In this document: piece by piece, positions 3,226-35,131 of the stretch
Layout of the letters: every line of letters starts with the position of its first letter
Numbering within the stretch: position 1 is the first letter of the stretch
Assembly: GCA_963706565.1 (NCBI GenBank)
Contig: CAVPMQ010000003.1
Location: forward strand, 259,119-323,118
Direction: 5' to 3'
DNA from: an uncultured Solirubrobacterales bacterium
GTDB taxonomy: Bacteria > Actinomycetota > Thermoleophilia > Solirubrobacterales > Solirubrobacteraceae
DNA: 64,000 nucleotides
The notes under the pieces: generated by a model
What the model was told of the DNA's origin: nothing
Seen by the model: the letters and a program-made list of their open reading frames with translations, nothing else
Database searches by the model: none
Program-made: the position numbers and the translations under genes

Positions 3226-3660
3226 TCAGCCGGACAGCCCGCACGGACCCTGGGCGGCCTGAGCGGCGAACAGCTCGGCCCGCGACAGCTCGGGGAACTT
3301 CGGGTTGCGCGCGGCGGCGGTGTCGCTGAACGTCAGCGTCCCGTCCTGGAGCTGGACTCGGTAGGTGAACACCTTGGCGGGCGCGGGGAAGCGGCGGTTG
3401 TCCTGGACGTCAGCGTCGAGGTCCTTGGCCAGGTCCCGGGCGTCGAGCAGCAGCGGATCGGCGATCGACTTGGGCTTGGAGCCGTTACAGCGGATCGTGC
3501 CGCTGTCGTTGACGAGCAGCGTGAGCGTCTGGCCCTGTCCGGTGCGGTGCAGGACGAACAGATCGGGCGAGGCGACGTCGAGCCCGCATCCGGCGATCGT
3601 GGCGCACGCCGTGGCGGCCGTGAGCGCGGCGAGCCCGATCCGAAACCAGTACGCGGTCAT
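3226..3660 (-). CDS. Hypothetical lipoprotein
   Basis: Hydrophobic N-terminus with IAGC lipobox-like motif; fills the gap between neighbouring genes. Confidence 0.6.
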   Translation of the reverse strand: MTAYWFRIGLAALTAATACATIAGCGLDVASPDLFVLHRTGQGQTLTLLVNDSGTIRCNGSKPKSIADPLLLDARDLAKDLDADVQDNRRFPAPAKVFTYRVQLQDGTLTFSDTAAARNPKFPELSRAELFAAQAAQGPCGLSG

Positions 3661-3764
3661 CTCCCCATCGTGCCGAATCCCGGTCTCGTGCCGCGCGGCG
3701 CAGCTAACATGCCCCCAAGCTCGGACGCCGAGGACGGATCCTCGGGGGCGCCGGGTGAGACGCC

Positions 3765-4637
3765 ATGCATCCGATTTCCTACTTCCAGGCCATCGTGCTC
3801 GGACTGCTCCAAGGAGCGTCCGAGCTGTTCCCGATCTCGAGCCTCGGGCACGCGGTGATCGCCCCTCGCCTGTTCGGCTGGGACATTCATCAGAACGACA
3901 CGTTCTTCCTAACGTTCCTGGTCGCGGTACACCTGGCCACGGCGCTGGTGCTGCTGGGCTTCTTCTGGCACGACTGGGTCCGGATCGTCAAGGGCTTCTT
4001 CCGCACAGTCCGCGAGCGGGGGATCGATCCCGCCGACGCCGACGCGCGGCTGGCCTGGCTGCTGATCGCGGGGACGATCCCGGCCGGGATCATCGGCCTG
4101 GTGCTCGAGCATCCGCTGCGCAAGCTGTTCGCGTCGCCGGAGTACGCGGCGGTGTTCCTGATCGTCAACGGGCTGCTCCTGTTCGGCGCAGAGCGACTGC
4201 GCCGCCGTGCTCCCGACGCGCCCGAACGCGAGGCCGACGAGGACTTCCGGATCGCGCACCGGATGAGCTTCCGGCAGGCCGTCGGCGTCGGGGCGGCGCA
4301 GGCGCTGGCGCTGATCCCCGGCATCTCCCGTTCCGGGGTGACGATGGGCGGCGGGCTGATGGTCGGCCTGAACAACCGCGACGCCGCGCGCTTTGGATTC
4401 CTGCTGGCCACGCCGATCATCGGCGCCGCCGCGCTGCTGAAGCTGCCCGAGCTGTTCGGCCACGACGGCGATGGCGTGCGTGGCCCGGCACTCGTGGCGG
4501 CGCTGTGCGCGGCGGGCAGCGCGTTCCTGTCGGTGCGGTTCCTGATGCGGTTCTTTGAGACCAACCGGCTGACGCCGTTTGCGATCTACTGCGTGGTCGC
4601 CGGGACCGCCTTGACGATCGGGTTCGCAGTCACCTAG
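3765..4637 (+). CDS. uppP: Undecaprenyl-diphosphate phosphatase (BacA/UppP)
   Basis: QGASELFPISSLGH and ALIPGISRSG motifs; multiple TM helices. Confidence 0.95.
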   Translation: MHPISYFQAIVLGLLQGASELFPISSLGHAVIAPRLFGWDIHQNDTFFLTFLVAVHLATALVLLGFFWHDWVRIVKGFFRTVRERGIDPADADARLAWLLIAGTIPAGIIGLVLEHPLRKLFASPEYAAVFLIVNGLLLFGAERLRRRAPDAPEREADEDFRIAHRMSFRQAVGVGAAQALALIPGISRSGVTMGGGLMVGLNNRDAARFGFLLATPIIGAAALLKLPELFGHDGDGVRGPALVAALCAAGSAFLSVRFLMRFFETNRLTPFAIYCVVAGTALTIGFAVT

Positions 4638-4651
4638 GCCGAGTGCTGGAC

Positions 4652-4680
4652 GTTTAAGCGAAGCCCTGCTTCGTTAAAAC
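4652..4680. terminator. Hairpin between convergent uppP and ggt (possible bidirectional terminator)
   Basis: GTTTAAGCGAAGC-CCT-GCTTCGTTAAAAC imperfect inverted repeat with A/T-rich flanks. Confidence 0.5.
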
Positions 4681-4690
4681 ATCCACCCTC

Positions 4691-6181
4691 CTAGGTCACG
4701 ACGACCGCGGCGCCGCCTCGCCGCGGGTCCCCTCCGCCCCAGAAGCACCCGTCAGCATCGCGCTCGACGGCCTGTGCGCCCCCGAAGAACAGGTTGAGGT
4801 CGCGGAACCGGGCGATCTCGCGGCCGCCCGCCTCCAGAACCCCGGTGTCGATCCCCGGCTCGGCGTAGACCACGCCGTCCTCCCAGTGCAGCCTGGGCGC
4901 GCGGACCGCGTCCCCAGCCCGCAACCCCTCGTCGACCACCCGGATGATCGTCTGCAGGATCGCTGAGCGGATCCGGTTCGATCCCGCGCTCCCCACGGCC
5001 AGCTCGGGCGTCCCGTCGCGCATCAGGATCGTCGGCGCCATCATGCTCGGCAGCCGCCGGCCCGGCGGGTGGCGGTGGAAGCCGAGCGGGTTGAGGTCCT
5101 GCTCGCCGAGCATGTTGTTCAGGTGCACGCCGGTCCCCGGGACGACGATCCCCGAGCCCTCGCCGTTGGAGCAGGTGACCGAGCACGCCCAACCTTCGCG
5201 GTCGAGCACGGCGATATGGGTGGTCGAGCCCAGCCGCCCGGCGCCGGCCAGGAACCGCCGCACGAACTCGGGGTCGTCGAGCCCCTCGAGGAACTCGGTG
5301 GTGCGCTCGCGCTGGGTGCGCTCCATCACGTCGACGATCGCCGCCAGCGCAGGGGGACCCGGCGCCGCATCGAGCATCGCCAGTGCCCGCGCGATCAGGA
5401 TCCCGCCCGCCGACGGCGGCGCGTTGGTCAGCACCTCGCGCCCTCGGTACGGGACGCGGACGGGCTCGCGATCGACGACCTCGTAGGCGGCGAGGTCGGC
5501 CGCGGTCAGCATCGCTCCGCGGGCGCTCACCCAGTCGACGATCGCGGCCGCGATGTCGCCCGTGTAGAACGCCCCCGAGCCCTCGGCCGCAAGCAGCTCG
5601 ATCGCATCGGCGAGCTCCGGCTGGCAGATCCGCTCGCCCGCCCGCAGCACCCGCCCGTCGGGGGCGTACAGCTCGCGGCACTCCGGGGTGGCGGTGACGA
5701 TCCCGGCCAGGATCTCGACCACGTAGGCCTGTGCGGGGTTGAGCTCGACCCCGTCGCGGGCCAGCCGCGCGGCCGGCGCCACCAGCTCGGCCAGCGGCAC
5801 CCGGCCGAACCGCGCCGAGGCCTCGCACAGCCCCGCCGGCACCCCGTAGGCGCCGACCGAGGCGGCGCCGATGTTGAACACCTGCTCGGCGTCGCCGAAG
5901 GAGACGTCGATCGGAACCAGGTCCGAGCGGACGGCGGGGTCGGCGCCCCGGCCCGGCGCCTCCACGAAGAAGTCCAGTAGCGACGGCCGGCCGTCGGGAC
6001 CGACCACGAGCATGTAGCCGCCCGCTCCCAGACCGGTCAGCAGCGGCTCGCACGAGAACGACGCCAGCATCGCGCCGAGCGCCGCGTCCACGGCGTTGCC
6101 GCCTGCGCGCAGCACATCGGCCCCCGTGCGGGCGGTCAGCGGGTGGCCCGCTGCGATGACGCCGAGCTGCGGCCCGGCCAC
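4691..6181 (-). CDS. ggt: Gamma-glutamyltransferase
   Basis: GGNAVDAA, catalytic STTHIAVLD, LNNMLGE, PSMMAPT and GGGDPRRGG motifs; GTG at 6181 follows the ftsZ stop. Confidence 0.9.
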   Translation of the reverse strand: MAGPQLGVIAAGHPLTARTGADVLRAGGNAVDAALGAMLASFSCEPLLTGLGAGGYMLVVGPDGRPSLLDFFVEAPGRGADPAVRSDLVPIDVSFGDAEQVFNIGAASVGAYGVPAGLCEASARFGRVPLAELVAPAARLARDGVELNPAQAYVVEILAGIVTATPECRELYAPDGRVLRAGERICQPELADAIELLAAEGSGAFYTGDIAAAIVDWVSARGAMLTAADLAAYEVVDREPVRVPYRGREVLTNAPPSAGGILIARALAMLDAAPGPPALAAIVDVMERTQRERTTEFLEGLDDPEFVRRFLAGAGRLGSTTHIAVLDREGWACSVTCSNGEGSGIVVPGTGVHLNNMLGEQDLNPLGFHRHPPGRRLPSMMAPTILMRDGTPELAVGSAGSNRIRSAILQTIIRVVDEGLRAGDAVRAPRLHWEDGVVYAEPGIDTGVLEAGGREIARFRDLNLFFGGAQAVERDADGCFWGGGDPRRGGAAVVVT

Positions 6182-26700: not shown

Positions 26701-27897
26701 CTAGATGCCGCGCTGGAGCGCCAGCACCAACAGCACGACGGCGACCACGCCGGCCAGCACGACCACGGCCAGGTTGGTCGCCAGTGCGACCCTCAGCGCG
26801 CCGGGCGAGGGAGCCTGCTTGGGCTCGTCGGCGGGCGGCTCGGAGACGACGCTCTGCGCGGGGTCATCGGGTGTCAGCGTATCGACCGGTTCGTTAGCCG
26901 CAGGCGTCAACGACGTGGCGAGCGCATCTGTCACGTAGCGGTTGAGGCTTACTTCTTGGCGCTCGGCGGCGCGGGCCAGCTGCTCGTGGAGGTCGCTGGG
27001 CATCCGCACCAGGAATCGCCCGCTGTAGTTGGAGCCGTCCTTGTGCTTGCCCGGTCGAGTCGCCTGACTCTGCTGGTCTGCGCCCACGGCGGCGATTCTA
27101 GAGTTCGCCTGCCCGCTCGCGCGAGCTTTCGGACCCGGGCCCTTGGCGTTTGCCGGTTTGACGGGCGATCGAGGAGGAATAACGGGCGATATCACCGCTT
27201 CAGGGGTGATATCAGCGGGGTGGCCGTCGAGCTGCTCGCGGAGCTTGACAAGCGCCCCCTCGAGCAGCCGGGAGACGTGCGCCTGGGAGATCCCGACCGC
27301 ACGACCGATCTCGCGTTCGGTCATGTCCGCGTGAAAGCGCAGGAACACGATCCGGCGCTCGCGGTCGTCGAGCGCCCGCAGGCTGCCCGCCAGCAGCATC
27401 CGATCGTCGCTGGTGACCAGCGGTTGCGCGGTGTCGCTGCCCTCGAGCGGCTCATCGCTCGCCGGTGGCGTCACCGAATCAGCAGCCCGCTGGGCGGCCA
27501 GCGCTCGCTCTACCGCCGGCAGGTCGGCGTCGAGCGCCGTCGCGACCTCCTGGGTCGTCGGGAACCGACCGAGCTTGGTGGCGAGCTCTCCCTGGCGACG
27601 GCGGACCCGGCGGCTCATCCGAGCCACGTCGCGGGGGATCCGCACCGCGGAGACCCGATCGAGCAGGTGGCGGCGGATCTCGCCTTCGATCGCCGGCGTG
27701 ACGAACGTCGCGAACGCGACGCCGCGATCGGGGTCGAATCGGTCGGAGGCCCGTACGAGACCGATCGCGCCGACCTGGACGAGGTCGTCGAGCTCCTCTC
27801 CACGGCCCGCATACCGGCGTGCCACCGATCGGACAAGCGGCATGTGCCGGTCGATCAGAACCTGACGGGATTGCTTCTTTGCCCCTTTCACTGCCAC
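26701..27897 (-). CDS. SigB/SigF-family sigma factor fused to HicB/Arc-type RHH domain and C-terminal TM helix
   Basis: Region 2 LDDLVQVGAIGL..A.DRFDPDRG..FATF..P.IEGEIRRH; region 4 EREIGRAVGISQAHVSRL; RHH YSGRFLVRMPSDLHEQLARAAERQEVSLNRYV; hydrophobic tail LAVVVLAGVVAVVLLVLAL. Start uncertain (27891-27927). Confidence 0.85.
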   Translation of the reverse strand: MAVKGAKKQSRQVLIDRHMPLVRSVARRYAGRGEELDDLVQVGAIGLVRASDRFDPDRGVAFATFVTPAIEGEIRRHLLDRVSAVRIPRDVARMSRRVRRRQGELATKLGRFPTTQEVATALDADLPAVERALAAQRAADSVTPPASDEPLEGSDTAQPLVTSDDRMLLAGSLRALDDRERRIVFLRFHADMTEREIGRAVGISQAHVSRLLEGALVKLREQLDGHPADITPEAVISPVIPPRSPVKPANAKGPGPKARASGQANSRIAAVGADQQSQATRPGKHKDGSNYSGRFLVRMPSDLHEQLARAAERQEVSLNRYVTDALATSLTPAANEPVDTLTPDDPAQSVVSEPPADEPKQAPSPGALRVALATNLAVVVLAGVVAVVLLVLALQRGI

Positions 27898-28014
27898 ACC
27901 CCCATGTGGACCAGTATCACCCCTCAAACTAACAGGGATAGCACGACAAATGTCACTTTTGGTGGGGATCGGCGGGCTGGATCCTGGCGATAAAGAAGGG
28001 CAGGACGCAGGTTT

Positions 28015-29142
28015 ATGGCTTGTCGTAGAACGCGAAAGCTATGGGGGCATTGGGGTGTTCTGGCGTCGACCGCGACGCTGACGCTCCTATCGCTCGCCAT
28101 CCCCGGGATCGCCCAGGCCGCAAGCGCGGATGTCGCCGGCGCGGCCAGAGTCGCCATCCCCTCCGCGCCGGCCGTGCCGGCGGCCGCAGTCACGGCCGCC
28201 ACCTCCGCGCGCTCGATCGCGTCGACGGCGACCGCACATGCCTCCGCCGCGATGCCCGCCGCGCAGCCTGCCGCCGCTGCCGTCGCCGCCGCCGAGGCCG
28301 TCGCTCAGAAGGTCACTTCGAGTCCGTCCGCCGCCTCCGCAGTGAGCTCCCAGCCCTCGAGTCCGCAGGCTGTCGCCGGCGGCTCGAGCTCTTCGCCCCC
28401 ACCACCGCCCCCGGCCGTCCACTCCGGGTCCGCGTCTCAGCCGGACCCCAGTCCCGGATCGCTCGCCGACACGATCGTTCGCCACGTCGAGACCGAGGTC
28501 TCGGCCGCGATCCCGCACAACGTGCGGCCCGACTCGCCGGTCCCGTCCCAGATCAAGGCGATCGTGGCCGATCCCGTTTCGGTCGCGCATCAGGGCGCGC
28601 CCGTCACCGTGGTCGGCCCGAGCAGCGGCCGACGACACCGCGGGCCCAGCAGCTCGTGGCGCCCCGATCCGCGCTCGAGCTCGGGTCATGCGTCGGCGTC
28701 AAGGACACGGGCCGGCACGTTGCTCGCCGGCGCAGCCGCGCCCAGCGCGTGGCTCGCCGCGGCACCTGCGCCGCCCCAGTCAGCTTCGCTGTCAGCCACC
28801 GGAGACCGGCCGGGGGCGGTGGCGCCCCCCACCTCGGACGCGACCGGACCTCCGGGCTCCGGCGGCCACGCCCGCGACCACCTCCGCACCGGCTCTCGGG
28901 CTGGACGCGTTGACATCGCCACGCCGGTCGGCTCGTCGGCTCCGGCCACGGCGGCCGTGGCGCCGGCTGGATCTGAGGGCACGAGCTCGGGCGTCGGCGC
29001 AGGCGGCTCAGCGGCCGCGGCGGCGATCGTGGGGCTGGCTGGCCTCGGGCTGCTGCGGGCGTTGCTGCCGGGGCTGCTCACGCTCGACATCTTTCCCTGG
29101 CAGTCCACGCTCCGGGCCATGCGGCTCGAGCGCCCTGGCTAG
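28015..29142 (+). CDS. Exported Ala/Pro/Ser-rich protein with C-terminal hydrophobic segment ending LERPG
   Basis: N-terminal signal peptide (..LLSLAIPGIAQA), low-complexity body, AAAIVGLAGLGLLRALL segment. Confidence 0.65.
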   Translation: MACRRTRKLWGHWGVLASTATLTLLSLAIPGIAQAASADVAGAARVAIPSAPAVPAAAVTAATSARSIASTATAHASAAMPAAQPAAAAVAAAEAVAQKVTSSPSAASAVSSQPSSPQAVAGGSSSSPPPPPPAVHSGSASQPDPSPGSLADTIVRHVETEVSAAIPHNVRPDSPVPSQIKAIVADPVSVAHQGAPVTVVGPSSGRRHRGPSSSWRPDPRSSSGHASASRTRAGTLLAGAAAPSAWLAAAPAPPQSASLSATGDRPGAVAPPTSDATGPPGSGGHARDHLRTGSRAGRVDIATPVGSSAPATAAVAPAGSEGTSSGVGAGGSAAAAAIVGLAGLGLLRALLPGLLTLDIFPWQSTLRAMRLERPG

Positions 29143-29202: not shown

Positions 29203-29222
29203 AGTCAAGGAGAAACACAGCA

Positions 29223-31163
29223 ATGAGATCGAAAATGCTCACTGCTGCGGTGACGATCGCTGCGCTGGCACTGCCGGCGTCGGCGATGGCCAGTCCCGGG
29301 TCTGGAGGCTCAGGACAGGCGCAGCAGTCAAAGCAGGCCGCAGCCACGCTGCAGGCAGCCCTGTCAGCGGCACACGCCAAGCAGAACGCAACCAACGCGA
29401 ACGCTCCGGTCAACGTCGCCGGCGGCGACATCTCGGGCGGCGACAACAGCGCCAACCAGACCGCCACCAACGGCGCCCTGAGCGCAGCCGGCAACGCGGC
29501 CGGTACGCACCAGAGCAACAACCAGACCCAGTCGACTTCGGGCTCCGGCTCGGGGTATGGGTCGGGCTCCGCTCCGGGGTACAAGTCCGCTCCGGAGTAC
29601 AAGTCCGAGTCGGCTCCGTCCGCGGGGTCGGGCGGCGCTGGCCAGGCTCAGGCATCTGAGCAGGCGGCGGCTACCGCCCAGCTCGCGGCCTCCAAGGCCA
29701 AGGCCGAGCAGAACGCGACGAACGCCAACGCTCCGGTCAACGTCGCCGGCGGCGACATCTCGGGCGGCGACAACAGCGCCAACCAGACCGCCACCAACGG
29801 CGCCCTGAGCGCAGCCGGCAACGCGGCCGGTACGCACCAGAGCAACAACCAGACCCAGTCGGACCCGCCCTCGGGCCCGTCGATCGGGTCGGGTGGCTCC
29901 GGCCAGGCACAGCTGTCCGCGCAGAAGTCGCTGACCGCTCAGCTGGCGGCCTCCAAGGCCAAGGCCGAGCAGAACGCGACCAACGCGAACACGCCCGTGA
30001 ACGTCGCCGGTGGCGACGTCAACGGCGGTGACAACAGCGCCGACCAGACGGCCACCAACGGCGCCGCGAGCCTGGCCGGCAACGCGTCGGGAACGCACCA
30101 GAGCAACGACCAGAGCCAGTCCGCCGACTCCAGCTGCTACATCGGATGCGGCGGCGCGGGCCAGGCCCAGCTCTCCGAGCAGAAGTCGCTGACCGCCCAG
30201 CTGGCGGCATCGAAGGCCAAGGCCGACCAGAACGCGGTCAACGCGAATGCCCCCGTGAACGTCGCCGGTGGCGACATCTCGGGCGGCGACAACAGCGCCA
30301 ACCAGACGGCCACCAACGGCGCCCTGAGCGCCGCCGGCAATCTGGCCAACACCGACCAGAGCAACAACCAGACCCAGTCCGCCGACTCCAGCTGCTACAT
30401 CGGATGCGGCGGCGCGGGCCAGGCCCAGCTCTCCGAGCAGAAGTCGCTGACCGCCCAGCTGGCGGCGTCGAAGGCCGACGCAAACCAGAACGCGGTCAAC
30501 GCCAATGTTCCGGTGAACATCGCGGGCGGTGACGTCTACGGAGGCGACAACAGCGCCAACCAGACGGCCACCAACGGCGCCTTCAGCGCCGCCGGCAATC
30601 TGGCCAACACCGACCAGAGCAACAACCAGACCCAGTCCGCCGACTCCAGCTGCTTCATCGGATGCGGCGGCGCGGGCCAGGCTCAGCTCTCGAGCCAGGA
30701 GTCGGCCACCCTGCAGGCGGCCCTCTCCAAGGCGGACGCTCACCAGAACGCGGTCAACGCCAACGTTCCGGTGAACATCGCCGGCGGTGACATCTACGGA
30801 GGCGACAACAGCGCCAACCAGACGGCCACCAACGGCGCCTTCAGCGCCGCCGGCAATCTGGCCAACACCGACCAGAGCAACAACCAGACCCAGTCCGCCG
30901 ACTCCAGCTGCTTCATCGGATGCGGCGGCGCGGGTCAGGCCCAACTATCGGGCCAGGCCGCGCTCACGTTGCAGGGAGCGTTGTCCAGCGCGAATGCGAA
31001 CCAGAACGCGGTGAACGCCAACGTTCCGGTGAACATCGCGGGCGGTGACATCTACGGAGGCGACAACAGCGCCAACCAGACCGCCACCAACCTCGCCGGC
31101 AGCCTAGCCGGCAACTTCGCCAACACAGGCCAGACAGGAGGGCAGGACCAGTCATCGAGCTGA
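29223..31163 (+). CDS. Secreted Gln/Asn/Ala/Ser/Gly repeat protein, 7 repeats (putative fibre or amyloid-like major subunit)
   Basis: AAGGAG RBS; Sec signal ending ASAMA; seven copies of QNAxNANxPVNxAGGDxxGGDNSAxQTATN; CYIGC/CFIGC loops. Confidence 0.85.
   Translation: MRSKMLTAAVTIAALALPASAMASPGSGGSGQAQQSKQAAATLQAALSAAHAKQNATNANAPVNVAGGDISGGDNSANQTATNGALSAAGNAAGTHQSNNQTQSTSGSGSGYGSGSAPGYKSAPEYKSESAPSAGSGGAGQAQASEQAAATAQLAASKAKAEQNATNANAPVNVAGGDISGGDNSANQTATNGALSAAGNAAGTHQSNNQTQSDPPSGPSIGSGGSGQAQLSAQKSLTAQLAASKAKAEQNATNANTPVNVAGGDVNGGDNSADQTATNGAASLAGNASGTHQSNDQSQSADSSCYIGCGGAGQAQLSEQKSLTAQLAASKAKADQNAVNANAPVNVAGGDISGGDNSANQTATNGALSAAGNLANTDQSNNQTQSADSSCYIGCGGAGQAQLSEQKSLTAQLAASKADANQNAVNANVPVNIAGGDVYGGDNSANQTATNGAFSAAGNLANTDQSNNQTQSADSSCFIGCGGAGQAQLSSQESATLQAALSKADAHQNAVNANVPVNIAGGDIYGGDNSANQTATNGAFSAAGNLANTDQSNNQTQSADSSCFIGCGGAGQAQLSGQAALTLQGALSSANANQNAVNANVPVNIAGGDIYGGDNSANQTATNLAGSLAGNFANTGQTGGQDQSSS
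29310..31140 (+). repeat. Intragenic tandem repeat, 258-bp period in the distal repeats
   Basis: GCCGACTCCAGCTGC recurs at 30123, 30381, 30639 and 30897, exactly 258 bp apart. Confidence 0.9.
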
Positions 31164-31175
31164 CCTGACCCGGAC

Positions 31176-31226
31176 CGGGCGCCCCGGCGGCCCCCTCGTG
31201 GGGCCCGCCGGGGCCCGCCGGCCTTT
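31176..31226 (+). terminator. Strong GC hairpin after the repeat gene (terminator or mRNA stabiliser)
   Basis: CCCGGCGGCCCC-CTCGT-GGGGCCCGCCGGG stem followed by a short T tract. Confidence 0.5.
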
Positions 31227-31239
31227 CGTGATCCACGCG

Positions 31240-33000
31240 ATGCGAGCTCTCGGACATCCCCTGCTGCTCCCGGCGGTCGCCACGGCCGCCCTGCTGCTGT
31301 TCGTGGCGCCGCAAGCCCGGGCGGCGGACTCGGCGAGCGTGGTATCGCAGGTTCAGGCGGCGGATCTTCCCGCTACCACTGCGGATCCGGCCGCCGCGGC
31401 GGCGCCGACGAACGCTGATATCAGCGCCCCGGCGAGTCCAGATACCACCGATACAAGCTCCGTCGACAACGTTCAGAACACGGTCCAGAGCACCGATCAG
31501 ACGGATGCTCCAGCGGAGCCGGTGACACCTCCTCCCGCGCCGCCGACGCCCCCTCCCCCGCCGCCGACGTCTCCTCCCACGGCACCGGCGCCTTCGGTCG
31601 CGTCGGCGGCTCCCGCTCCGGCCGCAGCGACGAACGCGACCACCCAGGTTGTCTCGCAGGTGCAGGTCGCGGGATGTCTGTCGCACTGTCAGGGCGGGAG
31701 TCAGACCCAAGTGGCGGCGCAGCAGAACCAGACCGTCCACACGCCGGCCTCGACGTCGACTCCGACCTCGACCCCAGCGCCGTCCACCAGCCACATCAAG
31801 CAGGTCCAGGTCGGGTGCGCCAGCGCGTGTTTCGGAACCACGTCCAAGGGCTCGAGCCCCGGGCTGGGGCCGCACGAGCTGTCGGAGCTTGTGCTCGCGC
31901 TCGGCGTCGCCGACTCGCTGCCGACGACGGCGCCCATCAGCGGAGCCGTCCACAACACGGTCTCGCAGACCTCCTCGCAGCTTCAGGTTGGGACCGGCGA
32001 CGCGCAATCCCAGACACAGAGCGCCGCCCAGGCGAACCTCACGATCCAGGCACTCGGCGCCGACCTCGTCGCAAACAGCACCACGCAGGCGATCGCCCAG
32101 ATCCAGATCGGCTGTCTGTTCTATTGCCACGGCACCTCCCAGCAGCAGATCGCGACCCAGTCGAACACGACCGTCGACGTCGCTCCTTCGGCCGCAAGCG
32201 TGTCGACCGTCACAGCTTCGGCCGTGTCCAACGTCACCGACCAGCTGATCTGGCAGTTGCAGGTCGGCTGCCTGATGTGGTGCTGGGACGCGACCCAGGA
32301 TCAGTCGGCATCCAGCGACGACGCGCTGATCGAACTTCCCTCTCAGTGGCCCCCACCCCCGGCGCAGCCGTCGGACCCACAGCAGCCTCCGGACCCCGGG
32401 CCGACGGCCCCCTCGGGCCCGCCGTCGCCGTCCGTGCCGGCGCCGTCCGCTCCGGCTGCGCCGCCGGGTGTCACCGCCCCGCCGCCGTCGTTGGCCCCAT
32501 CGCCGGCGTTCGCGGCCACGCAGTCAACTTCCCCGCCGGCGGCCGGCGCCAACACCCCGACACCGGCCGGCTCGGCGATCGATGTCGGCGGCGTCGTCTC
32601 GGGATCGGTTTGGTCGGGAGCGTGGTCGGAGTCGCTCTCGGCCGCCGGTTGGAGCGTCACCGAGGCGGCGTCGCCGGCGCGCCCGGCCGAGCCTTCCGGG
32701 TCGCGGTCGCGGTCGCGGTCGCCGTTGCCGCCGTCGGCCGGCACGGTATCGGTCGTCCGCCAGGTCGCGACGTCGTCGACCTCGTTCGCCTTGGGCTCTG
32801 CGGTCCACGCCCGCCGAGCGGCCCGGAACGAGCACCGGCACGGATCGGACCCCGCTGGCGCGAAGCCGGCCGGGACGGCGGCGATCGGCGACAGCTCGGT
32901 CGACGGCAGCGCGGACCGAGCGCTCGAGCTGGGGCTGGCAGCGTTCGCGCTCGTCGGTCTGCTGGCCGGGGCTGTGGCATGGCGGCGGCGGATCGGTTGA
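31240..33000 (+). CDS. Secreted, C-terminally membrane-anchored protein with Gln-ladder/CxxxC repeats (putative minor subunit or anchor)
   Basis: Signal peptide ending QARA; repeats QVQVAGCLSHC, QVQVGCASAC, QIQIGCLFYC and QLQVGCLMWC; Pro-rich linkers; LGLAAFALVGLLAGAVA-WRRR tail. Confidence 0.8.
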   Translation: MRALGHPLLLPAVATAALLLFVAPQARAADSASVVSQVQAADLPATTADPAAAAAPTNADISAPASPDTTDTSSVDNVQNTVQSTDQTDAPAEPVTPPPAPPTPPPPPPTSPPTAPAPSVASAAPAPAAATNATTQVVSQVQVAGCLSHCQGGSQTQVAAQQNQTVHTPASTSTPTSTPAPSTSHIKQVQVGCASACFGTTSKGSSPGLGPHELSELVLALGVADSLPTTAPISGAVHNTVSQTSSQLQVGTGDAQSQTQSAAQANLTIQALGADLVANSTTQAIAQIQIGCLFYCHGTSQQQIATQSNTTVDVAPSAASVSTVTASAVSNVTDQLIWQLQVGCLMWCWDATQDQSASSDDALIELPSQWPPPPAQPSDPQQPPDPGPTAPSGPPSPSVPAPSAPAAPPGVTAPPPSLAPSPAFAATQSTSPPAAGANTPTPAGSAIDVGGVVSGSVWSGAWSESLSAAGWSVTEAASPARPAEPSGSRSRSRSPLPPSAGTVSVVRQVATSSTSFALGSAVHARRAARNEHRHGSDPAGAKPAGTAAIGDSSVDGSADRALELGLAAFALVGLLAGAVAWRRRIG

Positions 33001-33109: not shown

Positions 33110-33781
33110 GTGAGCCGCGTGCACGGTCGTAGAGCCATCGTCTCGATGGGCGCATTCGCCCTGATGCTGGGCGCACCCGCGGTCGCGATCGCCGCCTCAC
33201 CCAGCGCCCAGCCCTCGCCCCAGAAGGCCCCGTCGGTGAGCGCCGCCGCGACGCCCGCTCCGGACCCTGCGCCCCAGGCGTCGTCGTTCTCGTCGACGCC
33301 GCACACGACCGTCACCTCGCAGCCGTCCGCCGGCTCGCCGGTATCCGTGTCGCCGACGGTCACTTCGTCGCCGGTCTCGAGCGCGCCGTCTCAGACGGCG
33401 ACGTCCGCTCCGGTCCAAACTCACAATAAGTCCGCGGTGACCGGGCCGACGTCGACCGCCGACTCCACGTCGCCGGCCAAGGCCGTCGCGGCGGCGTCAC
33501 CGACGCGGCCCCGGCCCGCCGCCCATCACGCCGACAGGCCCAAGCCCGCCCCGGTGCATCACCGCAAGCCCGTGGCAAAGCCCTTCGTGCTGTCGCTGAT
33601 GAACCCGCGCGAGCTGCCGCAATTGCCGCTGGAGGCGGTTGCGGCGACTAAGGCGGTGCGGCCGGATGGGATGCTGTTACTGCTCAGCGCGCTCGCGCTC
33701 GGGACGCTCGTGGTCGCCAGCCTGTCGCTGCTGCGTCGGCTGACCCGGCTGCATGACGAGTGGCGGGAGCGGTCGGTTTGA
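33110..33781 (+). CDS. Exported Ser/Pro/Thr-rich protein with C-terminal TM helix
   Basis: Signal-like N-terminus (FALMLGAPAVAIA), low-complexity stalk, MLLLLSALALGTLVVASLSLL-RR. Confidence 0.6.
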   Translation: MSRVHGRRAIVSMGAFALMLGAPAVAIAASPSAQPSPQKAPSVSAAATPAPDPAPQASSFSSTPHTTVTSQPSAGSPVSVSPTVTSSPVSSAPSQTATSAPVQTHNKSAVTGPTSTADSTSPAKAVAAASPTRPRPAAHHADRPKPAPVHHRKPVAKPFVLSLMNPRELPQLPLEAVAATKAVRPDGMLLLLSALALGTLVVASLSLLRRLTRLHDEWRERSV

Positions 33782-35131
33782 TCCGGCGGCGGTACCGGCT
33801 CGCGCTGGTCGGGGCCGTCGTGGTGATTGGGGTGCTACTCGTAAGTGTCGGGATGGCGTTGGCGGACGACATCTCGCGCGACGTGCACAGACAGGTCGGT
33901 CGGCGCCGGCGTGCGACGGCGGCTGGTACGCGAGCCCGGTTTCGGTCGTCTGGCAGGCGAATCCCGCTCCGACGAGCACCGACCGTGCCTGCTTGGCGTC
34001 GTGACCCAGTTCACGACGGACACTGTCACGAAGGTTTCGTGCACTGCGAATTGGCCTTCCGACAGCCAGTCGCGAAGCTACACGCTGCACGTCGAGGCTT
34101 CGAACCCGAGCGCGTCCGCAGTCGCCGTCTCGACCACCGGATGCGAACGGCTGGTACAACCATCCGTTCTCGCGTTTCGTTCCGGGGTAGCGCGTTCTCT
34201 GGGATCGCGTCTTGCAGCGTGCCGGTGACGTACGGCGGTCCCGACACGCTCAACACGAGCGTTGCCGGCATCTGCATCGACCACGCCGGCAAGACCGCGG
34301 GCGCAAGCGTCTCGGTCCACTACGACGCAACCCCCCCGACGATCACCTCGGGCCTCCCCACCCGGGCGCCGGACCACAACGGCTGGTACACGCACCCGGT
34401 CACGTTCGCGTTCAACGGAACCGACGCAACCTCGGGGGTGAGCAGCTGCGCGAACATCACCTACGCGGGCCCGAGCAGCGCCTCGGCCGCGGTGACCGGC
34501 AGTTGCGTAGACCGCGCGGGCAACGTCGCCCGGATGGCGGTGCCGCTGCACTACGACTCGACCGCGCCCTCGCTGGCGGTATCGACCGCTACCGGCGACG
34601 GGTTCGTGGGGCTCGATTGGAAGACAGGTGCCGACGTCGCGCCGCTGACGTACGATCGAGGTGACCCGCAAGCCGGGCCGCCGCGCCGCCGACAGCAGCG
34701 TCGTCTACCGCGGCAAGGCCGGCGACTTCCGCGACCTGCACGTCAGTAACCGAAAGCGCTACCGGTACACGATCACCGCCACCGACCAGGCCGGCAACAG
34801 GTCGGCCCGGGTCGTGTCGATCACCGCCGGCCCGCACCTGATCTCACCCGGCGACGGCGCCCGGGTGGGGGCTCCGCCGCTGCTGACCTGGACCTCGGTT
34901 CGCCGCGCCACCTACTACAACGTCCAGCTGTTCCGCGGCCGGAAGCTGATGAGCATCTGGCCGGACACCACGAGCCTGCAGCTCAAGCGCAGCTGGCGCT
35001 TCGGCCGCCATCACTACAACCTGCGCCCCGGCCGCTACCGGTGGTTCGTGTGGCCGGGCTTCGGCGAGCGCTCAGCCGCCCGCTACGGACACGCGATCGG
35101 CAGCGGGACATTCGTGGTCACCGCACGGTGA
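33778..35131 (+). CDS. Secreted Ig-like/fibronectin-type repeat protein (several frameshifts)
   Basis: Signal peptide; repeated (N/G)GWY..P...C.D.AG(K/N)...V.YD.T.P modules spread over three frames; Fn3-like YRYTITATDQAGN.S. Confidence 0.65.

Follow-up and report, generated by a model that had tools for sequence, protein, structure and literature searches.

The curli subunit CsgA (8enq, 8c50; E. coli, Pontibacter) is a secreted, uncapped β-solenoid built of imperfect strand-arc-strand β-arch repeats, with an inward Gln/Asn-ladder zipper, a near-mirror core and free variation on its outward face. Curli repeats are 23 ± 5 aa long, the fibres grow head-to-tail, and a paralogous partner, CsgB, is bound to the membrane or cell surface (PMC10192328). 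The chaplins of Streptomyces (ChpA-H, PF03777) are actinobacterial, Sec-exported and amyloid-forming, with long anchored forms encoded alongside short free ones. FapC of Pseudomonas (9u4u) is a known functional amyloid, secreted and made of stacked imperfect repeats with variable linkers; the fap operon encodes the outer-membrane channel FapF and further accessory proteins. Here, we describe P0001, a 646-aa repeat protein encoded in a 64,000-nt stretch of DNA (the whole stretch analyzed, referred to below as the window; G+C approximately 70%) from an uncultured Solirubrobacterales bacterium (GCA_963706565.1, contig CAVPMQ010000003.1, positions 259,119 to 323,118). P0001 was classed as a secreted repeat β-solenoid of the functional-amyloid type, which would work like curli while standing outside the curli family. 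The host belongs to the Thermoleophilia, which are common soil bacteria; no paper was found in the literature on Thermoleophilia surface structures, on the P0001 family, or tying Thermoleophilia, Solirubrobacter, Conexibacter or Gaiella to amyloid or to such repeats.

A preliminary description of this DNA had claimed a secreted protein of seven 86-aa-type repeats, and the open reading frame, the leader, a cut of the protein at its GQAQ anchor and Tandem Repeats Finder (positions 29631-31134; period of 258 nt, 5.8 copies, 84% matches) all agreed with it. The seven units delimited at the GQAQ anchor were respectively 109, 87, 86, 86, 86, 86 and 76 aa long. Homologues have a similar leader (A1 consensus), and cleavage presumably takes place at the ASA/AMA motif. 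The mature part lacked Arg and Trp, as had been stated, and Met as well; it consisted of 47% A+G+S, 22% Q+N, 8% charged and 2% aromatic residues and was acidic overall (15 Lys, 28 Asp, 8 Glu). The Gln spacing reported in that description was present, Q-x3-Q-x-Q preceding the Cys loop and Q-x-Q-x3-Q following it, with the key Gln residues invariant or nearly so in 43 homologues. A CxxxC turn had been assigned to every unit; the eight Cys residues in fact formed four C-x3-C loops, at junctions 3/4 to 6/7, and the other two of the six junctions (1/2 and 2/3) were Gly/Ser/Pro loops without Cys. No wall-anchor motif, membrane segment or other domain was found in P0001 by inspection of the translation or with Pfam and NCBIfam. 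Known sorting signals with a membrane helix (LPXTG, PEP-CTERM, GlyGly-CTERM and others) were likewise absent from its C-terminus, which is a normal unit without a hydrophobic tail. An hmmscan against Pfam-A returned no family at E ≤ 1, and Pfam and NCBIfam gave only chance rows (phosphoenolpyruvate carboxykinase, 14 bits). More than 512 homologues with 38-59% identity were retrieved in a word-indexed search, nearly all of them metagenomic "hypothetical proteins".

Conservation within the unit was measured in alignment A2, which comprised 60 diverse units cut from many proteins. Information content followed a strict period of two over residues 314-343 and 357-387 (unit-4 numbering). Conserved positions averaged 3.7 bits in segment A and 3.1 bits in segment B, against 1.6 and 1.3 bits for the positions in between, and the alternation was significant in each strand (Mann-Whitney P of approximately 1e-5). 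The conserved face was made up of Ala (32%), Gln (26%), Asn (14%), Ser (10%), Thr (7%) and Gly (4%), with about 1% charge and few large hydrophobic residues; Asp, Lys and Glu were almost wholly on the variable face. The arc joining the two stretches carried invariant Pro and near-invariant Gly residues. This pattern reads as the signature of two long β-strands, each with one buried face, and it is independent of any structure predictor. Because more than 512 homologues keep the unit and the period-2 conservation is significant, the repeat pattern is not due to chance. Further, across P0001 and 81 complete homologues, many of them near-identical, aromatic residues on the outward face and arc rose from approximately 0.5% in the N-terminal rungs to 7.7% in the last rung, a trend from a set that was not de-replicated and that would lend the modelled solenoid a chemical polarity.

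The structure of P0001 was predicted with AlphaFold2 (AF2) from an input alignment of 43 sequences. The model had a mean predicted local distance difference test score (pLDDT) of 76.8 and a predicted template modelling score of 0.68, with strands above 90. All seven units were alike: each opened with a strand of about 29 residues, passed through an arc holding two mini-strands and closed with a second strand of 30-35 residues. The pLDDT fell below 50 in the leader, in the long loop after unit 1 and in all Cys loops, which were the least confident region and are missing from units 1 and 2. In unit 1, the strands spanned residues 32-60 and 75-104, and the loop was at 106-138. The rungs were equal in length and stacked in register, with equivalent residues in parallel contact, as in a parallel β-solenoid; this arrangement comes from prediction only. 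When the model was compared exhaustively with VIA-align, the β-helices of SufD, SufB and SmsB (1vh4, 5awf, 9h78) were at the top (Z 13.7-15.0, 214-225 residues, root-mean-square deviation [rmsd] 3.8-4.8). These are cytoplasmic Fe-S assembly proteins with 8% identity to P0001, and about one third of each rung could be superposed; the resemblance is one of architecture, a regular parallel β-helix, and not of kinship or function. The CsgA fibril 8enq followed with a Z of 10.0 (110 of 111 residues, rmsd 8.7) and Pontibacter CsgA with 8.5. The lower rows were mostly autotransporter passengers, RTX blocks, TPS domains, tailspikes and ice-binding solenoids, and every notable structural neighbour was a parallel β-helix or solenoid. 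Because of the repeated AF2 pattern and these neighbours, a solenoid with one unit per rung and a curli layout was preferred, and we consider it likely that P0001 is a two-sheet parallel β-solenoid with one 86-residue unit per rung. Its two long segments are modelled as β-arches, in which the strands meet via their side chains and the backbone bonds run between rungs. The preliminary description had expected long hairpins stacked into a cross-β or solenoid filament; the stacking, and the head-to-tail pairing of two copies, were recovered in prediction, but the in-plane, hydrogen-bonded hairpins were replaced by arches.

Foldseek against the PDB gave nothing at E ≤ 0.001; its weak rows were FapC, CsgA and β-helices, with FapC at the top but not significant (E 0.55, probability 0.03, template modelling [TM] score 0.06-0.16). 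A unit profile searched against PDB chains hit chance rows only (E 1.6 and 3.9). Searching the ESM Atlas by shape returned unrelated families with TM scores of at most 0.17 by query (0.12-0.32 by matched model), and searching it by features returned only unnamed actinobacterial clusters at 0.81-0.85, below the trusted level, with a low recognition score of 1262.

Predicting the monomer and head-to-tail oligomers had been proposed in the preliminary description; the monomer was the AF2 solenoid given above, and for the oligomer ESMFold2 was used, which returned a head-to-tail pair. Two copies of residues 227-646 were folded in three runs, with three controls. The interaction prediction score from aligned errors (ipSAE) was 0.71 in the median run and 0.00 in the best control; the runs shared at least 93% of contacts, and the partner's pLDDT was at least 82. 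In the calibration of the tool, 20 of 30 homo-pairs with solved structures reached this mark, as did 1 of 23 single chains, counts that hold only roughly here (own alignment used). The last rung (569-646) lay on the partner's first rung (227-304) in register, and the rung of unit 7 was the entire interface on one side. Equivalent residues touched each other (620-276, 627-283), with an offset of 344, or 4 × 86. The residues of the next rung that touched the partner (326, 328...344 and 529, 531...545) matched the conserved face exactly in parity. The register of the two sheets was set by the cross-sheet contacts 619-254 and 623-250, and in it unit 5 pairs Q402/Q471, T410/T463, Q412/A461, A414/N459 and N426/Q447. 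The modelled core is a near-mirror zipper with large residues often opposite small ones, corresponding to what had earlier been called a mirror-symmetric Gln ladder; in prediction, the mirrored spacing of Gln is compatible with a pair of strands that bring their conserved faces together inside the core. The analogous arrangement in curli has been termed a centrosymmetric steric zipper (PMC10192328). The dimer model supports binding between subunits without demonstrating it.

Taken with the sequence, these predictions suggest how P0001 could act, and we put at about even the chance that it serves as major subunit in a surface fibre or ribbon of functional-amyloid-like kind, which a conserved Thermoleophilia gene cluster would encode. 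P0001 would be exported by Sec and, outside the cell, fold as a flattened plate of seven rungs, approximately 3.4 nm along the axis at 4.8 Å per rung. Each rung would comprise a strand of about 29 residues, the conserved P-V...G...G arc and a return strand of about 30 residues, with a length of approximately 10 nm, and a variable loop, often C-x3-C-G-G, would connect it to the next. The sheets would pack via a nearly uncharged steric zipper of Ala, Gln, Asn, Ser and Thr, with Gln and Asn mostly opposite Ala and Ser; like residues would form ladders along the axis, and all the charge and nearly all the sequence variation would be outside. Because neither end is capped in the prediction, the last rung could accept the first rung of the next molecule, and the ends could take up further subunits head-to-tail. 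The product would be a cross-β fibre or ribbon about 10 nm wide, the length of a strand of 29-30 residues, exposing variable acidic outer faces and an edge of Cys loops. Membrane-anchored partners, which synteny marks as candidate anchors or nucleators, might hold or seed the fibre, and the neighbouring sigma factor might set its timing, again as suggested by synteny. Fibre formation by P0001 is thus plausible, with the balance close to level; fibres in vivo, a role for the neighbours in anchoring them and any disulfide in the Cys loops are what we infer. The disulfide-pinned turn of the preliminary description would fall in these loops, where a Cys pair might close its own loop or bridge neighbouring rungs.

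Compared with CsgA, P0001 shares the secreted, uncapped β-arch solenoid, the inward ladder zipper, the near-mirror core and the free outward variation, in its case by prediction and conservation only. However, the curlin repeat (Curlin_rpt, PF07012) was unmatched in P0001 by hmmscan of Pfam-A. The rung is 86-88 aa in the P0001 family rather than the 23 ± 5 aa of curli, with strands about four times longer; the core is without the hydrophobic Ψ positions of curli, and the protein has Cys loops. P0001 comes from a Gram-positive-type actinobacterium, and the anchors in its cluster are C-terminal membrane helices, unlike in curli. Genes of the csgB/E/F/G type were not found among the flanking genes scanned (those for the sigma factor, the upstream protein, P0002, the Ser/Pro/Thr-rich protein and the GWY-repeat protein; Table 1), and the rest of the genome was not searched. 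Like FapC, P0001 is modelled as stacked imperfect repeats with variable linkers; no sequence similarity to FapC was found with the unit profile among PDB chains, and the flanking genes scanned had no Pfam match except the domains of the sigma factor. The chaplins have a short P-V-N-[VI]-x-G-like motif in common with the unit. The preliminary description had pointed to this echo; kinship was tried and rejected, with no Pfam match for P0001 at E ≤ 1 and an hhalign probability of 1.85% over 15 columns between A2 and A3, an alignment of 10 chaplin domains. The chaplin domain is about 55 aa long with two Cys residues 18 apart (A3 columns 36 and 54), whereas the unit is 86 aa with C-x3-C and units 1 and 2 have no Cys. 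No chaplin gene was found in the host's own genome (90% complete).

A bolder reading, which we hold to be somewhat less likely than not, takes P0001 as a third bacterial functional-amyloid architecture beside curli and Fap. In this reading, uncultured soil Thermoleophilia would have a Gram-positive system that needs Sec only: a polar-zipper solenoid with 86-residue rungs and no hydrophobic core, forming flat ribbons about 10 nm wide and about 1 nm thick and lined along one edge with redox-sensitive C-x3-C loops. Paralogues anchored in the membrane would seed or tether the ribbons, and a sigma factor tethered to the membrane would switch them on. A conserved fibre cluster would offer a first handle on surface building, aggregation and survival of drying in Thermoleophilia. 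P0001 would extend the curli principle (β-arch rungs, Gln/Asn zipper, head-to-tail growth) to rungs four times longer, and a core of only Ala, Gln, Asn, Ser and Thr would test the extent to which a fold can be sustained by a polar zipper. For materials, engineers would have an attractive object in a genetically encoded flat ribbon whose width is defined, whose outer surface is free and whose edge is lined with Cys.

The coordinates of the gene, its units and its neighbours are given in Table 1. P0001 is present as one copy in its own genome. Its ribosome-binding site is strong and conserved, with the AGGAG core kept in at least 90% of an alignment of 20 species loci. It was the only conserved element found upstream: no conserved promoter emerged when the region was scanned for promoters and terminators or when the upstream spacers were aligned.

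Table 1. Features of the P0001 locus, with positions counted from the first letter of the window.
Feature	Position (nt)	Strand	Remarks
Sigma factor, SigB/F/G-type (SigF-like), with HicB/Arc-like ribbon-helix-helix and hydrophobic C-terminus	26701..27927	-	Pfam, NCBIfam
Upstream exported low-complexity protein, C-terminal membrane helix, RLERPG end	28015..29142	+	Open reading frame
Shine-Dalgarno AAGGAGA	29207..29213	+	9 nt upstream of ATG; read from sequence
P0001 gene, 646-aa repeat protein	29223..31163	+	Open reading frame; includes stop codon
Putative signal peptide, Sec-type, residues ~1-23	29223..29291	+	Basic start, hydrophobic stretch, ASA/AMA cleavage motif
Unit 1, residues 31-139	29313..29639	+	Followed by long Cys-free Gly/Ser/Tyr/Pro/Lys loop
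Unit 2, residues 140-226	29640..29900	+	Junction Cys-free
Unit 3, residues 227-312	29901..30158	+	First CxxxC loop at end, Cys305/309, nt 30135-30149
Unit 4, residues 313-398	30159..30416	+	CxxxC loop Cys391/395, nt 30393-30407
Unit 5, residues 399-484	30417..30674	+	CxxxC loop Cys477/481, nt 30651-30665
Unit 6, residues 485-570	30675..30932	+	CxxxC loop Cys563/567, nt 30909-30923
Unit 7, residues 571-646	30933..31160	+	Final rung; no cap domain beyond
P0002: signal peptide, Pro-rich linkers, β-rich core, C-terminal membrane helix, basic tail	31198..33000	+	Open reading frame
Ser/Pro/Thr-rich exported protein, C-terminal membrane helix	33128..33781	+	Translation; no Pfam match
GWY...GTD...SG...C...AGN repeat protein, weak Ig-like hints, split over two frames	33760..35131	+	Translation, library scan

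Synteny was counted over the best 80 species loci among 145 genomes that encode a P0001 relative (scan with one genome per species). A homologue of the sigma factor lay upstream of the repeat gene, in divergent orientation, in 66 of the 80 loci; its immediate neighbours included no anti-sigma or partner-switching genes. An upstream open reading frame with the membrane helix and RLERPG end was present in 59-63 loci. After the helix, these proteins carry a conserved tail, W-[RQ]-S-x-L-L-x-x-R-L-E-R-P-G-stop (positions 29020-29142 of the window), which matched no known sorting-signal family and may be a conserved cytoplasmic tail or an unrecognized processing signal. Eleven of 63 RLERPG proteins held 3-6 divergent, Cys-free 86-aa-type units of approximately 80 aa (hmmsearch E 7e-25 to 3e-5). 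Their loci (L074 [3500-5569], L078, L086, L100, L094, L064, L077, L083, L072, L056 and L087) came mostly from metagenome-assembled genomes (MAGs) labelled Gaiellaceae, Thermoleophilia or just "Actinomycetes". The unit-bearing upstream protein is an anchored paralogue of the secreted repeat protein, and the arrangement resembles CsgA with CsgB, or short with long chaplins, where a free major subunit stands beside a membrane-bound paralogue. In the host's own cluster, the candidate for anchoring or nucleation would be P0002, by analogy with those systems.

P0002 starts 35 nt downstream of the repeat gene, and a P0002-like gene followed the repeat gene in 52 of the 80 loci. Four CxxxC were present in 47 of these 52 homologues, and most ended in a C-terminal membrane helix and basic tail; the family core has four Q-x-Q-x-G-C-x3-C elements, two of them with a conserved Trp, between long Pro-rich linkers. 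The AF2 model of P0002 showed strands over residues 144-380 (pLDDT 80-95), a helix at 571-599 and disordered Pro-rich linkers. A fold search with it was dominated by terminal helices and uninformative (Z ≤ 6.9). P0002 was considered as a clear paralogue of the unit and rejected as such: the 28-column stretch in common, C-x3-C...Q-x-Q-x3-Q-x3-T-x-Q, scored just 7.6% in hhalign and is a lead only. No cluster gene besides the sigma factor belonged to a Pfam family. The Ser/Pro/Thr-rich protein was detected by BLAST in the closest relatives only. A GWY-repeat homologue was found within 6 kb in 63 of the 80 loci. In the window, the halves of the GWY gene lie in overlapping frames (33760-34749 and 34661-35131), and the first ~130 codons resemble an Arg-rich wrong frame; the split is probably an assembly or frameshift error of the MAG or a mis-set start.

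Several other readings of P0001 were weighed. The same β-solenoid might form no open-ended fibre and remain a discrete seven-rung plate (about 10 × 3.4 × 1-1.5 nm) that coats the cell, either as a two-dimensional surface layer or wall armour held by lateral contacts, or as a spacer or adhesin that the membrane-anchored neighbours keep in place. The copy number is tight, at 6-9 units per complete homologue, as expected of a fixed-size part, and three proteins of the cluster are membrane-anchored. The outward ladders of Leu, Val, Phe and Tyr and the increase in aromatics from the first units to the last also suggest lateral or polar contacts. However, neither end of the plate is capped, the sole interface predicted is end-to-end and in register, and the outside is poorly conserved, contrary to what specific contacts in a lateral lattice would lead one to expect. 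We regard the plate as unlikely.

The solenoid might instead be a prediction artefact, and P0001 a largely disordered, hydrophilic, low-complexity secreted polymer serving as a hydrogel, matrix filler or water-retaining coat. The composition, rich in small residues and in Gln and Asn and poor in aromatics, would suit it, as would the lack of a significant PDB match in Foldseek and the low Atlas recognition score. AF2 is further known to yield confident but unrealistic solenoids for perfect repeats, artefacts that typically show buried uncompensated charges and disagreement of other predictors (Pratt et al., PMC11795689). By contrast, the buried face of P0001 is nearly uncharged, its pattern holds in divergent homologues, and a second predictor returned the same stacking. 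Strict period-2 conservation over two 30-residue stretches is not expected of disordered regions, nor is a fixed unit of 86-88 aa with insertions in one loop only, maintained in spite of 38-59% identity to the query. Disorder appears improbable.

A β-solenoid that binds ice, mineral or another surface through its flat faces is a still poorer fit, and we give it very little credence. The host lives in soil, and Lolium ice-binding protein (Z 7.6), Rhagium antifreeze protein (6xnr; Z 6.5) and Marinomonas antifreeze protein (Z 5.0) were among the structural neighbours, but such Z values are in the range common for repeats. The Rhagium protein, like the P0001 model, is a two-sheet solenoid, and its sheets pack very closely via small side chains without a classical hydrophobic core. 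However, it is a much smaller, capped monomer with a conserved outward Thr array, and no outward array of the T-x-T type is present in P0001. Ice-binding faces are regular and conserved, whereas the outward positions of P0001 are variable (0.5-1.7 bits) and mixed, including Asp, Lys, Glu and Leu; the anchors and sigma factor would also be left unexplained. Finally, an antiparallel meander of 14 long in-plane hairpins in a twisted sheet or barrel is allowed by the connectivity, and the mirrored Gln pattern would fit cross-strand neighbours too, but it is scarcely credible given that both predictors place equivalent residues of successive units in register and in parallel contact, that the structural neighbours are all parallel solenoids, and that the 14-residue arc with conserved Pro and Gly is too long for a tight hairpin turn.

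A number of observations count against the solenoid fibre itself. The entire case is computational and none of it experimental. ESMFold2 reproduced the AF2 stacking with an identical alignment as input, which leaves the two predictions less than fully independent, and a predictor might stack any two homologous rungs; further, the N-terminus in the dimer test was non-native, being rung 3 instead of rung 1. A core without large hydrophobic residues across 30-residue strands would be unusual and may not be stable. In the host's own window, the 86-aa unit was undetected in the upstream protein (E 64), and the link between P0001 and P0002 depends on the 28-column motif with its low hhalign value. 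The units of P0001 are 66-91% identical to one another. The family is also patchy: within the genus, 4 of 25 genomes have it, counting the host's own, and 12 of 301 do among those sampled from the class, which means that it does not belong to the core components of the envelope.

The P0001 family is unnamed and almost confined to soil MAGs of Thermoleophilia. An exhaustive HMMER search with two units as query gave 177 clusters at the 50% level, and all family members found were from MAGs. Among the 80 loci, 79 were from MAGs labelled with a Thermoleophilia taxon (Solirubrobacterales, Solirubrobacteraceae, Conexibacteraceae, Thermoleophilaceae, Gaiellaceae or Thermoleophilia) or merely with a broader actinobacterial rank (Actinomycetota, Actinomycetes or Actinobacteria). 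The sole non-actinobacterial record (L053, DATJUU010000081.1) was a 9.5-kb contig labelled Opitutaceae that carried the gene with its sigma factor and P0002 neighbours, most likely a misbinned contig rather than a transfer. Unit spacing was 86-88 residues almost everywhere in the family, and longer spacings were due to insertions at the Cys loop only. Because the identity among the units within P0001 exceeds the whole-protein identity to database homologues, the repeats appear to undergo concerted evolution, by recombination or gene conversion. Distant relatives of the unit (E of approximately 1e-10) were also found in genomes of family f7, for example at G435:C10:103770-105437. The matched stretches there recurred mostly every ~330 nt (~110 aa), with some matches adjacent or overlapping, suggesting that the sizes of rung and loop vary outside the core family.

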